Source: Ascidiella aspersa (taxonomy: Eukaryota). Taken from it: a stretch of 64,000 nucleotides of DNA. The translations under genes and the position numbers were made by a program. The stretch lies in NCBI GenBank assembly GCA_963924565.1, contig OZ004611.1, forward strand, positions 25,606,001 through 25,670,000. The letters run 5' to 3'. Below are positions 26,901-32,900 of this stretch, one piece after another. The first letter of the stretch is position 1; each line of letters begins with the position of its first letter. A model generated the notes under the pieces. The model saw only the letters and a program-made list of their open reading frames with translations. It made no database searches and had not been told where the DNA came from.

Positions 26901-29900
26901 TCGAAAAATGACACATTTGGCCGGATTCGACTCGGGACTTGGGAAGTCGGACTCGGGTTCATGTTTTGACCGGAGTCGGACTCTGGTTGTTTTTAACCGA
27001 CCCCGCAGCCCTGCCTGAGCAATGAGCATAAACCAAGTTTTGTAGCCTTGCCTTGCACAAAATACTTACGCTATGATCTTGCTTTCCGTATAGCAACCCT
27101 TTTTACTGTGCAAATAACGCTTTTCGTTTGTAACTACCGGAGCCGGTTGGTTATATAAGCAACAAAAAAAACTTCAGCGCACCTGAATCGGTTCATTATC
27201 CTTCCGAGCGGGGTTGTATCGAAGAAGGCCATGGGAGCCCTCATTATGCTGTGAAGCATCTTCGCTTGCAACATTCTGGCGGCGGCCACGGCACCAAACG
27301 ACAACGTGAAAGAGCAAATAAGAACCGAAAATGCTGTGCAAAAACAAGATTATTTATGATTTTTATCTATTAAATAGCCATATAATAGGGTGAATAAGAG
27401 AATCTGAAATCTTTCTTGGGTTTTCGGCCTATTAATGGTGTTTTTTGACTTATTTATTTTTCCATGCTGATCGTTTTATTGCATGGAACTTTATATTTTG
27501 CATTTTTTGCGGCTTAACCATAAAGATATTTTGAGTAATTGAACAGATGTTTGGGTAAAGATTAAAGGTAAATTAAGGGCTCTTTGAAAATATCGGGTCG
27601 GGGTCAATAACTGAAAACCAAGTGACAGTAACGTAGATCAAAACACTGTGGGCGTTTTTGTCTTACATACAACGTTTTCTGCATAGAAAGGCATAAATCA
27701 AGGATGCTTACCTTGTGAGAAGCCGAGCCCAGCGTAAACACCAAGTCGCATTCCAGTTGTGTTCTGTGTGCCGTCAGGGTTAACGGGGTCGTCGCTCCAT
27801 TCTGAAGAAAAAACGTTTCACTCGTTTAGCGGGCAAAACCTTGTTAGCGGTTTATACAATGTACACCAATCAAGGTCTTAAAACACTTGATAAGCTGTAA
27901 TGAGAACATCAAAGCCCATAAGAAGTAGGTACCTACTTCTTATTACGTACTACAACCTCCGAGCATTATGCTCCAAAATTTGATAAGCTTTTTTCCGAAA
28001 AATATTTAACAAAAGTGGAACAAATGCTTTGCTGCAGGTTTACTTACATGTTAATGGCGTAATTGTTGCCTGGTATAGGAGGCATGTTTTTATTAATACA
28101 ACAAACAAAATTAGAGAAAAAAGATATGCAGCGTACACTATTTTATAAAACTTCAATGAAGACCGCGGCACGTTTTTCGTCGCAGGTTGGTATAAGGCCC
28201 CAGTTTTTGCAAAATTGATGTTGTTTATGTAATAAGTAGCTTATAAACAAGTTTTAAATCCCGTAATTTGTTCACCTGTAATTTTGTTTTGTTTTACTGT
28301 TAAAACTTTATAAAGATTACTAAATTTCCTCTTTGTTTTGGTAACCGACGGAAAATGCGTGCATTCTAGAAACAGGGCACCGACAATGGTAAGCTCACCT
28401 GATAGCCAGATGTTGGAGTACACGGAGAGTCCGTTCTGAAGTGTGTAGAGTAATGTGATGGCCAAGCAAACCGGGTAACCAAGTGCACGCATATAAGACG
28501 TAACCACAGCTAGTCGGACCTACAAAAAGTAAATGAATGCTCTAGTTCTTATTTCGCCATTAACTGTTAGGCCACTCGAATTATCCAATCCACCGAACTG
28601 ACGCAACAATATATTTTAGGTAGTTCCTTTTTTTAAATTGGCCGTGAAAACGTATGCTATCCCTTTCCACATTTTACTGAAAAGTTACACGAAACAATTT
28701 TTTTTTTACATTTTACTGAAAAGTTACACGAAACAATTCCCATTTTTTTTAAGCGATTGTCAACTAATTTTATCAAGAATGAATTGCACATTGGTCGAAA
28801 CCACACAGCTACAACAATTTCAATTACACAGTTACAAACAAAACAAAGTATTTCTAAAAAACTATGCAGAAATTAGGCTGAATGTTTTTTAGGCTTGTAT
28901 TTTATGACAGCGTCCGGTGGTTAACGAACTTTCAAATTTGAAAAGCATCATTAGGATCAAAAAATGTAAATACTAATTTATACGAGTTTAAAGCTTTTTT
29001 GCGGCGTAATTCATTCTATCGCGTAAAACGCCAAATAAACTTTTCCAATATAGAGTTGTCTTACATTTCCAGTTTCGGCGGTTTCGGTAGTGATCAGCTT
29101 ATCGTCGACGGCGTTCTTCTTAGTGGCTGGCATCTTGCATACACGGTCGCTTTTCCTGGTGGCGTGCTCCGACAGTGATTTGCGGCTTCGCTGCCTTTAA
29201 AACAAGGAGAAACATATATTTGGAAAAAAGATGTTGCCTTGTTCGATGCGACACAAAATGCCTTCGGAAAGGCTTACCGAATCCGTCAGCCTGATCAGGA
29301 TTATAGGAGCTGTATGTACGGTTGATAGAGCGACGGCCCCGATGTGGTCAGAGGTCGTGAGTTCGAACCTCACCACAGGCTAGCCGTTTTTCTAGCTCTT
29401 GTCTAGGCTGACGTATTTCGGTAAGTCTTGCCGAAGGTTTGTTGTGTACACTATATTGGGTGCAGTTAGCGTTGGTCAGTACGACTCCCAGATAGATCAC
29501 AGAATGCACATTGTGTGAATGTATATTTCAGTTGTTTGATGCGAATTTGTAAAACGAAGAGACGGAATTAATGCCATCGAAAAAAACGTAACTTTGTTTT
29601 TTTTTAGTTATTTTTGAGGTTTTTATCGCCGGTTGTGCTAAAATTTACAATTGAATAAAAATTTAAATCCTGATCTCCAAAATTGCGTCAAATTATTTAT
29701 TAAAATAAAGTGAATTTTAATTTTTGCAATTTAGAATGGGTACACCTCAGACCAACGCAATTTTATAAAAGCTATTTATCGTCAGCTGTGTTAAAACGAA
29801 TATTGACCAAAACACGTTTAATTTGAGTCCAACGAAAGTAAATTAAGTTTCTAATCATTTACAGTCCAGGACTACAACCGGCAAACTACTAAAAGTTAAA

Positions 29901-32900
29901 ATTTATCTCCCGGTTGTCAGCAAGAAACTACATATCGTTAAACATTATTGGATATGCTTACCTTTCGAACTTGCGACGAGCGGCGTGTGTAGCTGAATCA
30001 ACGGATCCAACCACTGGATCAGGGATCTCATCATCGACCTCTCCTCCTCCTGGAAGTGGACTGGATGCAGCTGCGAAAAAAAGACTATGTTTTCGAGTCT
30101 GATAACCAGGGCCGCGGAGTCGGGTAAAAATAACCCGTGTCCGACTCCGACTAAATGTGCGATTTCATCGAGTCACGAGTCCGACTCTGACTCTTCTGCC
30201 TGAATTCCGCCAATTTACGTAACTTACGCAATATAATTCATCTAGCAACAATACACGGTTGGAAGATATGCACCATACGTTATTCCGCATTTACAATCTA
30301 AAGTTGGCGGCCATAGCAGTTTCCAAATTTGGTACTGCGAATACACACGTCGGACTCGGGGCTCGGGTGGTTTTACGTGGTCTTACTCACGTCCGACTCC
30401 AGCAAAACAAACCGACTCCGTCGAATCCCGAGTCCGTTTTCCTATGGCTCTCATGTGGTTTAATTTATGTGTTAGGCTCATGTGATTTTGATCTTGTCCT
30501 TAACTTTGTGTTTGTACCTCAAGCAGTAAGGAGCTCTATTGTAGTTGTACTATAGCTTGTTAGTCTTTTATCTTAGTTACAGTTGCTTACAGCATTAAGA
30601 CGTTTATTATTAATATTATATCTACTTGATTTATATAACATTGTTTTAAATTATATTCGAATAAGTAGCAAATGTTACTGTGGTATAAGTTAATGTCAAT
30701 CTAACTGATAATGACTTGTTTATGTTATGATTGAAGTGGATGAACAGATACGATCATAATAAGATGCGAGCGCCGATTTGGTGCAGATGCAATATCGGTT
30801 TGCGTTTTTCAACTGTTATCGTTTGCATTCGTGATATAAGAACGTGTTTTATCAGGTCGCAAAAAATGGATAATTGAGGCCTTGAGGCAGATTTTCGACA
30901 AAACATAAGTGACAAAATTATACTACTAAATCCATCGCAATTTTGCTTCATCATATGATGTGACTAGAAATATGCGAAAAACACACTTTTTGAATACAAG
31001 TACATCAGTCAGAACATTTGATAAAACCGTTATTTAAATATTTTATATATTTTGAGTGGTAAGAATACCAAAGCGGTAGTATTAATATTTTTTGAATGGC
31101 TAAATCAGTATTTCAAGTAACAGGATTTTATTTGGTTGGAGTTTTGGTGAATTTGTTAAATTGTGGGAGATATTTCAGCGTAACTCACCAGATAACATTT
31201 CGTCCTCAAATATTTCGTCGTTGTCGTTTTCTGCGTAGTTACGAAGGAATTCGGCAAACGCTTGGTCCCTTTCAAGAAGCTCGTAGTAACCACCCATCTG
31301 TAAACAAATATTTGTCAGTGCTGCAATGAAATCTTTTAGTTAATAAAGTAGTTAACAAGACAGAAAAAATGAATTAATAGTAAATAAATCTTTATTACAG
31401 CTAGTACACAGAAAGCCATCGCAGCTTCACCGAATCTGGTAATCAATTGTGCAAGCAAGGCAGGCGAGAAAAAACAACTAGCCTGCAGTGAGGTTCGAAC
31501 TCACGACCTCCCATCATACCGGGAACGTCGCTCTACCAACTGAGCTACAGAGACACAGAGAGGAGCGAGTCGAGAAACTACCATACGCCAAGGGCTAGAT
31601 CACAATTGTTAAACACATATGTTTGCGTATGTTTCATTGTTATAGTTATTCAATTTCTAAGTTGCCGAACAGCTATATAACTATTTTTTCGAAATAAATT
31701 CACATACAATTTTTTTTACGTCTGTCTATTACTGTAACTCGTCAGTACATAAAACAACAACGTTTAATTTAAACATTTTACCTCGGTAATCTTGCCATTA
31801 ACGAGAACAACGATGGTGTCGACTTGGGTAAGGAAGTTAACTCCGTGGGTGACGAGGATTCTGGTCTACATAAAAAATATTTTATATTATTCGTGTACGA
31901 TTTTTTCTGTAAATCGTATAAGCTTGTAAAACGTACATATTGCTCTCTTGTAGGTAGTTGAAACTAATCGAACATTACAACGCCACCTCAAATTGATTTA
32001 ATACGAATTACCCAGTCTGAATTTCATGGCTCCTTACGCCGAGGTCTCCGGTGTGGAGAACCAAACTGTGACGTAGGCAGGTGTGCAATTATGTTTTTTG
32101 CACACTTTAAATTAGAAATCCTACCCCAATTTAGCCGTGTTTTGAAATTTAAGAGTGAAATATACTAATTCAGGTATACACACAAATTTGTGCACCTGCC
32201 ACTAAATGTGTGCACCTGCCACGAAATGCAGATTGATATATTACCAGATTTTAAGTCTTCCCATCCAAGCTTATTATATTATTTCGAAACCTAACATTAT
32301 TTTAAAGCCTAATTAAACGTCTAACATTATAGAAATTATTCACCTTTGTTTTGTTCAGATAAGAAAATACGTAAAGGCTTTAAGGGTATCTTAATAAATA
32401 CATTATATAGTTGTTACTTTTCACAGTCTACCTACCTTCTTTCTGAGGCAGCCACGTGGTCCCAGAACGTTGTCGAAGATGTTTTTACCGACGTGAGAAT
32501 CCACAGCACTAAGGGGGTCGTCGAACAAGTATACCTTTAAAGAAAACACAGTTATATAACTTTCGAAATAAACAACTATAGGTTTATGAAAATTCTGACA
32601 TCCTCAATAGTAAAATAATACAGAATATCAAAGCCAAAAAGATCGAGTAAACCGACATCTTGGCAACGACGTTTCGATACCTTCTTGTACTATTGGTTAA
32701 CTTAACGTCATCAATACGATGTCTATTTACTCGACCTTTTCGGCTTTGAAATTCATTATATCAAGCTACATTACGGATCCGTGCATAGTATACCTATTTA
32801 AAAAATAAATATTAGCGAAAATTTCATTTCCAATAATGCCAATTAAACGAAGTTGAGAGTTTCATTTGACGAAGGTATGTGACATTAGAATTTCCACCAT

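Follow-up and report, generated by a model that had tools for sequence, protein, structure and literature searches.

Related elements and the tandem repeat of Ascidiella aspersa

Penelope-like elements (PLEs) that contain an endonuclease (EN+ PLEs), such as Poseidon_Ac (PMC11167929) or Pen2a of Adineta (PMC3846280), are described as having two adjacent 3' ends that are separated by a 'tail', and their insertions comprise head-to-head arms with the tail on one of them, partial tandems, 5' truncations and target site duplications (TSDs; see also PMC8557442). In a stretch of 64,000 nucleotides of Ascidiella aspersa (contig OZ004611.1, positions 25,606,001 to 25,670,000, hereafter the window), copies of an abundant and recently active element share all these features. 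The element is a non-coding, tRNA-bearing tandem monomer of 348 bp, and both copies for which an earlier note on this DNA had suggested movement by Penelope-like machinery belong to its family. It behaves like a passenger of EN+ PLEs and is very probably copied and inserted by the reverse transcriptase (RT)-endonuclease of a PLE, most likely from a clade with long tails that is represented by the family L146. Unlike the published EN+ PLEs, it has no open reading frame (ORF) and no hammerhead ribozyme, it contains a tRNA-like cassette, and its tail comprises approximately 98 nt instead of 30–40 nt.

Three further groups of elements are similar in part. Sm-alpha and Sj-alpha of schistosomes also form tandems, are present in thousands of copies and contain a polymerase III (Pol III)-type cassette in each unit, and Sm-alpha was described as similar to short interspersed elements (SINEs) and derived from tRNA-Gln-TTG (PMC6765202, PMC2770079). 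However, Sm-alpha has an active hammerhead, whereas the element from A. aspersa has none but carries a conserved terminator after the cassette, and the available text of the two reports names neither a partner nor a two-end insertion signature for Sm-alpha. Animal retrozymes without long terminal repeats (non-LTR retrozymes) likewise consist of non-coding tandem monomers, in their case of 170–400 nt (PMC7229834, PMC7761336, bioRxiv 10.64898/2026.07.22.740005), and it was proposed that they arose from PLEs as non-autonomous elements with a relationship to the pseudo-LTRs (pLTRs) of the latter (bioRxiv 10.64898/2026.07.22.740005). A type I hammerhead in every unit is the defining feature of retrozymes, and the accessible parts of these reports do not describe a tRNA cassette in them. 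As no hammerhead was found in our element, we do not consider it a retrozyme. In addition, the connection of retrozymes to PLEs is built on co-occurrence and similarity to pLTRs and not on the ends of insertions. Non-autonomous Chlamys elements, e.g. MRC1, are PLE passengers with head-to-tail insertions and with 3' similarity to autonomous families, in a clade without canonical hammerheads, but they occur in green algae, their partner has an N-terminal endonuclease, and the text at hand does not mention a tRNA cassette (PMC8557442). A literature search that excluded subscription journals, supplements, Repbase and Dfam, any of which may hold such a case, did not return a hammerhead-free, tRNA-derived PLE passenger. 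The partnership that the earlier note did not recognize as described thus has close counterparts in Sm-alpha and the retrozymes, whereas the hammerhead-free form with evidence at the level of insertions is new compared to what we found in print.

In the A. aspersa assembly (308.6 Mb in 75 contigs), an exact B-box pattern of 21 bases had 2,297 matches, including older variants, compared to none in the control. Ten distinct full monomers, arranged head to tail, had lengths of 345–352 bp. With a numbering that begins at the base following GTGTAC, the monomer is composed of the tail (1–98), a spacer, the tRNA-like cassette (approximately 198–272), a run of T and a segment leading back to GTGTAC. 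The cassette contains A and B boxes and was classified as tRNA by both ARAGORN and Rfam. In 58 copies, 89% of the cloverleaf cells were paired, but the covariation was weak, with 9 and 27 of 500 shuffles attaining the observed values. In the acceptor stem, the variants CA/TG, TG/TG and TG/CA can all pair (95 of 129 copies), but they stem from few events. Three subfamilies were distinguished, the young subfamily A, for which the tail pattern had 562 exact matches, subfamily B and the old subfamily C. The longest arrays contain approximately 12 monomers. In one of them (L429:1695-5951), about 12 near-identical monomers and an inverted arm of 113 nt are all enclosed by a single TSD of 14 bp. In an older variant, the leader and the tRNA-like cassette are repeated as a unit of approximately 141 bp, which is sometimes fused to the remaining monomer (L031, L034, L035, L040, L041, L048, L052 and L060).

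Two fixed 3' ends within one target duplication

Insertions of the element have two fixed 3' ends approximately 98 nt apart, E1 at GTGTAC and E2 at TTTCA. In a young set of 67 insertions with at least 96% identity to subfamily A, drawn from 192 loci, E2 was located at monomer position 96–99 in 45 of 46 arms. Head-to-head insertions of this set combined E1 with E2 in 22 of 26 cases, and neither E1 with E1 nor E2 with E2 was observed. The inner junctions were variable, arm lengths ranged from 24 to 4,150 nt and either arm could be the long one. A wider set of 141 unique insertions (120 loci and two pieces of the window) contained 42 head-to-head insertions with the 3' ends facing outward, but none that were tail to tail. 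These 42 inversions comprised 28 with E1 and E2, one with E1 at both ends and 13 with one or both ends elsewhere. The remaining 99 insertions were direct and ended at E1 (31), at E2 (19) or elsewhere (49), the last group consisting to a large part of the 141-bp variant or of decayed fragments. Partial tandems and 5' truncation occurred as well. The earlier note had described an inverted left end starting at a fixed internal site and a direct tail as the right end, and had proposed to tabulate more than 100 copies. None of the outcomes that it had named as refuting was observed; the outer ends are fixed rather than random, and TSDs are present, mostly of 12–16 bp. Both window copies reach GTGT(AC) at one end and TTTCA at the other, but the layout is symmetric, and the TTTCA arm becomes the inverted one when the opposite strand is read. 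Likewise, the tail is not the end of the element, as the monomer runs on and is repeated every ~348 bp. Because the inner junctions vary and either arm may be long, the supposed inversion start and the direct tail are two equivalent ends.

Among insertions with at least 93% identity, TSDs of at least 9 bp were detected in 26 of 33 cases, compared to 5 of 300 controls with mismatched flanks; for inverted insertions, the respective numbers were 22 of 29 and 4 of 300. In the young set, 33 of the 40 called TSDs had a length of 12–16 bp. An empty site was found for L032, where contigs from three of four public sequencing runs, all from one study, skip the entire inverted insertion of 714 nt with 14 ambiguous bases, confirming a duplication of 14 bp. 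Hence, a single event inserts an E1+E2 structure, and this insertion is polymorphic.

The duplications also bear on the Helentron/DINE-like alternative that the earlier note kept open, and on the related possibility of a DNA element resembling miniature inverted-repeat transposable elements, each with a terminal hairpin. A small hairpin indeed lies immediately before E2 and is enclosed by a long hairpin with E2 in its loop (z = -4.6 in A and -4.8 in B), although the latter is not the best fold in one copy of subfamily C. Helentrons are not known to produce long TSDs and retain both termini, which are fixed on one strand. Long TSDs proven by the empty site, variable 5' truncation, the wide range of arm lengths and the tandem arrangement make this explanation extremely improbable.

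An ordinary SINE that is mobilized by long interspersed elements (LINEs), with inversions produced by twin priming, would account for a head that resembles a tRNA and contains A and B boxes, for the 5' truncation and for the TSDs of 12–16 bp. Twin priming, however, leads to a variable outer inversion point, whereas both outer ends were fixed in the young inversions. Moreover, neither of the two 3' ends has a poly(A) or microsatellite tail, and head-to-tail multimers are formed (no direct comparison with the 3' ends of LINEs from this genome was made). As the cassette is internal and followed by a terminator and there are two ends, the element is not a conventional SINE, and mobilization by LINEs appears very unlikely.

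Junctions were analyzed in the 14 of 22 young inversions that had a called TSD. At E1, the TSD overlapped with the element by 2–5 nt in 10 of 14 cases, which is a raw count without a formal null expectation, and in 12 of the 14 inversions the TSD ended in A, at the point at which U is the next base of the RNA beyond E2. These overlaps suggest short pairing between primer and template. In this respect the element differs from the PLE analyzed in PMC11167929, for which the initiation site is reported not to be homologous to the cut DNA.

Candidate partner and template RNA

The genome carries many PLE families with RT and GIY-YIG domains and with minimal hammerheads in their pLTRs, and those sampled show clustered 3' ends. 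PLE-type mobilization of the element is supported by the two fixed 3' ends, of which each arm carries one, the variable inner junctions, the partial tandems, the TSDs of 12–16 bp and the layout in common with autonomous PLEs. The Penelope-style layout noted earlier is thus the same as in the autonomous PLEs of this genome and agrees with what is described in PMC11167929, PMC8557442 and PMC3846280, and together with the pairing of E1 with E2 and the TSDs, the two fixed ends back the earlier suggestion of a tRNA-derived element moved by Penelope-like machinery. We propose that a multimeric read-through RNA would be bound at the E1–E2 tail by a dimer of the PLE protein and that the target would be cut on both strands, 12–16 bp apart. 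Pairing of 1–5 nt between each DNA end and one of the two sites would then prime a separate cDNA, and the two truncated cDNAs would be joined head to head. Extension of one end alone would yield a direct, 5'-truncated copy. The dimer, the staggered cut and the two cDNAs are modeled on PMC11167929, according to the accessible text of which both strands are cut and extended by a PLE in vitro, with starts at two neighboring internal sites that delimit the tail. There, initiation at two internal sites on both strands was ascribed to a predicted dimer, and the hammerhead was dispensable for insertion in vitro.

Among the autonomous families, tails of approximately 78–85 nt were present in L146, L158 and L194, compared to approximately 30–40 nt in families that we take to be of the Neptune and Poseidon type from their motifs. 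The long-tail clade comprises L146/L150, L158/L171, L194/L306 and L193/L298, and the tail length measured for three of these families is twice the 30–40 nt given in the literature parts available to us. In L146, which has a tail of ~83 nt and TSDs of 13–18 bp, all 16 inverted copies join the E1-side end to the E2 end. L146 encodes an RT with a C-terminal GIY-YIG domain and a CxxCxxC linker and has 24% identity to a Neptune-type protein; its predicted domains and linker would agree with a placement in the Nematis clade as characterized in the accessible text of PMC8557442. Immediately before E2, 25 of 30 nt are identical between the tails of subfamily B and L146, and the score of 41 for this match was reached by none of 2,000 shuffles and by 4 of 15,000 genomic windows. 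Further upstream, subfamily C and L146 have an exact block of 12 nt in common, which sets both E1 sites in register. In the frame of the ORF-start motif of sibling copies, the matched block translates as E-G-L-D, and the tail thereby has an in-frame G-L/P-D relic of the ORF start in common with three sibling copies. A combined pattern derived from the tails of the element and L146, and hence not independent evidence, had 218 matches (control 0), and among the matches listed, all appear to be of the element or L146 type. Judged from these tail sequences, descent of the element's tail from the long-tail PLE clade is probable, and the clade represented by L146 is the likeliest partner, with a link of moderate strength.

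The relic of a PLE ORF start in the tail could also indicate that the monomer is merely the pLTR of an autonomous PLE whose ORF has escaped detection, rather than an independent element. However, beyond E2 the sequence directly enters the next tRNA cassette, in arrays of up to ~12 monomers, and in subfamilies A and B the frame of the ORF start stays open for no more than a few codons. Upstream of the arms, only the previous monomer or flanking DNA was found. A tblastn search with PLE ORFs in 154 loci yielded four fragments, the contiguity of which was not checked one by one, and none of the sampled autonomous PLE families has a cassette in its pLTR. We therefore regard this explanation as highly improbable.

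Several observations weigh against mobilization by a PLE of the L146 clade as we propose it. The sampling was biased, as L001-L030 were picked by likeness to the second of the reported window copies and L360-L429 by the tail pattern, and most loci are from contig C1. The sequence link between L146 and the element is short and was missed by blastn, and a profile hidden Markov model of the element's tail did not match L146 at E-values up to 10 in 664 kb. Subfamilies A and C reached only p = 0.05 and 0.04 against the L146 tail. In total, 39 tail comparisons were made, and L158 had a nearly equal score of 38, although its match was out of register and partly in the flank and was rejected for this reason. 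TSD length does not distinguish between PLE clades, and the tail of the element is longer than the tails of published PLEs. Instead of L146 itself, an unsampled or extinct sister family may be the partner. Regarding the template, 113 of 129 copies have a run of at least four T behind the cassette, approximately 60 nt before E1, and arm starts did not accumulate at the 5' end of the tRNA (2 of 75, null 2.1).

Because of the position of the T-run, a plain Pol III transcript would end before the tail. Arms often extend upstream beyond the cassette, and a read-through RNA would be required as template. We somewhat favor a read-through transcript produced by host Pol II or in another way, while a plain Pol III transcript with a leaky terminator is a slightly less probable source. 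In view of the T-run after the cassette and of arm starts that do not accumulate at the tRNA 5' end, the cassette is no more than a putative promoter. Template ends formed by RNase P/Z-type processing were rejected, since arm starts were not enriched at either end of the tRNA.

In contrast, arm 5' starts were enriched at E1 (11 of 75, null 5.0, P = 0.006), also after removal of first-lap E2 arms (6 of 61, null 1.5, P = 0.004), and weakly at E2 (5, null 2.0, P = 0.046), in a test window that was chosen after inspection of the data. This enrichment, and a monomer size in agreement with retrozymes, would be expected if the element were a non-LTR retrozyme with an atypical or decayed ribozyme that cuts at E1 and generates unit-length or circular templates. 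Such a scenario is compatible with mobilization by a PLE, the difference being the way in which the template is produced. However, strict and relaxed hammerhead core patterns were absent from both strands of the A and B monomers and of a partial C consensus, and an Rfam scan of the element returned only the tRNA, although Rfam also overlooked the hammerhead of L150, which is of the minimal type. The pairing of the hairpin before E1 is not the same in A as in C, and identical stops would be expected from a bound protein or from a transcription start. Overall, we consider a retrozyme of this kind unlikely. A degenerate hammerhead between the T-run and E1 (suggested by copy 1 and a relic at 43.9 kb of the window) was rejected because the subfamily consensus has neither core nor stem I. 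A second candidate at monomer positions 110–145 was rejected as well; it is restricted to subfamily A, lacks GAAA and corresponds to one strand of the long hairpin.

More tentatively, the element might exemplify an unnamed, recurrent class of ribozyme-free 'Penelope SINEs', in which tandem units combine an intact tRNA-like gene with a captured PLE initiation tail. In such elements, the initiation site itself, rather than a hammerhead, would be the place of cutting or blocking of the RNA, and the resulting unit-length templates would be used by a dimeric enzyme that primes one arm per site.

Copies in the window and significance of the family

The window contains three copies and two relics of the family, which are listed in the table together with other features. 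Copy 1 belongs to the old subfamily C and copy 2 to subfamily B. The TSDs of 12–13 bp reported earlier for both of them hold, with the duplication of copy 2 being degenerate; its three differences are all transitions, and it was missed by the automated TSD search.

Features of the window (positions on the forward strand)
Feature	Position	Strand	Remarks
Copy 1, left TSD	29239-29251		13 bp, 1 mismatch to right TSD
Copy 1, short arm	29251-29306	-	outer end at E1, GTGT(AC); aligned to subfamily C
Copy 1, long arm	29307-29530	+	decayed tRNA-like cassette, T-run, E1, tail; outer end E2
Copy 1, fixed sites in long arm	E1 29444-29449; E2 29526-29530	+	E2 reads TTTCA
Copy 1, right TSD	29532-29544		
Copy 2, left TSD	31392-31403		degenerate, 9/12 matching
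Copy 2, long arm	31404-31591	-	monomer positions 161-348; outer end E1 (GTGTAC)
Copy 2, tRNA-like cassette	31480-31554	-	Rfam RF00005, 32.6 bits
Copy 2, short arm	31592-31636	+	monomer positions 47-99; outer end E2 (TTTCA)
Copy 2, right TSD	31637-31648		degenerate
Copy 3, left TSD	20825-20836		12 bp, 1 mismatch
Copy 3	20838-21207	+	young, non-inverted partial tandem of 1.1 monomers, 97% to subfamily A, ends at E2
Copy 3, tRNA-like cassette	20964-21038	+	ARAGORN Ala-GGC; Rfam 54 bits
Copy 3, right TSD	21206-21217		
Old relic of the family	43890-44075	+	T-run to tail
Second tail relic of the family	44615-44691		
PLE pLTR stubs	375-463, 2051-2138, 9286-9595, 14250-14367, 24759-24790, 27891-27981, 32625-32794		
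Further PLE pLTR stubs	33762-33861, 40821-41145, 42926-43229, 59569-59737, 60245-60287, 63140-63184		
ABCC/MRP-type transporter exons	20319-20807, 33979-34359, 43525-43947	-	assigned by sequence motifs
Transposase-like remnant	56526-58414	+	frameshifted, probably hAT type (weak DUF4371 match)
Tandem repeat of 25 bp	25755-26229		core 100% identical

Copies 1–3 are located between the exons of the putative ABCC/MRP-type transporter. Approximately seven autonomous PLE families have left short pLTR stubs in the window, several of them head to head. The hammerhead family of the window corresponds to the pLTR of a Poseidon-type element (L236/L241). A tie between this family and the element through the GTGTAC end was rejected, as the Poseidon-type pLTR has a short tail and no significant similarity. 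Variant hammerhead cores were found in the pLTRs of L244/L245 and L191/L192, of the U3/A8 type in a Poseidon-type family and with GAAA replaced by GUAA in two families with long tails. Outside the window, intron-less Rho-like and UvrC-like ORFs are present at L122 (G000:C11:2088-5303), on a small contig that looks bacterial.

SINEs are defined as passengers of LINEs, and a high-copy, tRNA-derived passenger of PLEs would widen this scheme. Such an element would be mis-annotated as a SINE, a satellite or tRNA genes. To our knowledge, the insertion mechanism of PLEs is still largely unresolved. The family offers hundreds of young, polymorphic insertions and a cis element of 100 nt, lacks a ribozyme and shares its genome with a candidate enzyme, which makes the rule of one arm per site, the pairing of the primer and the need for a hammerhead directly testable.

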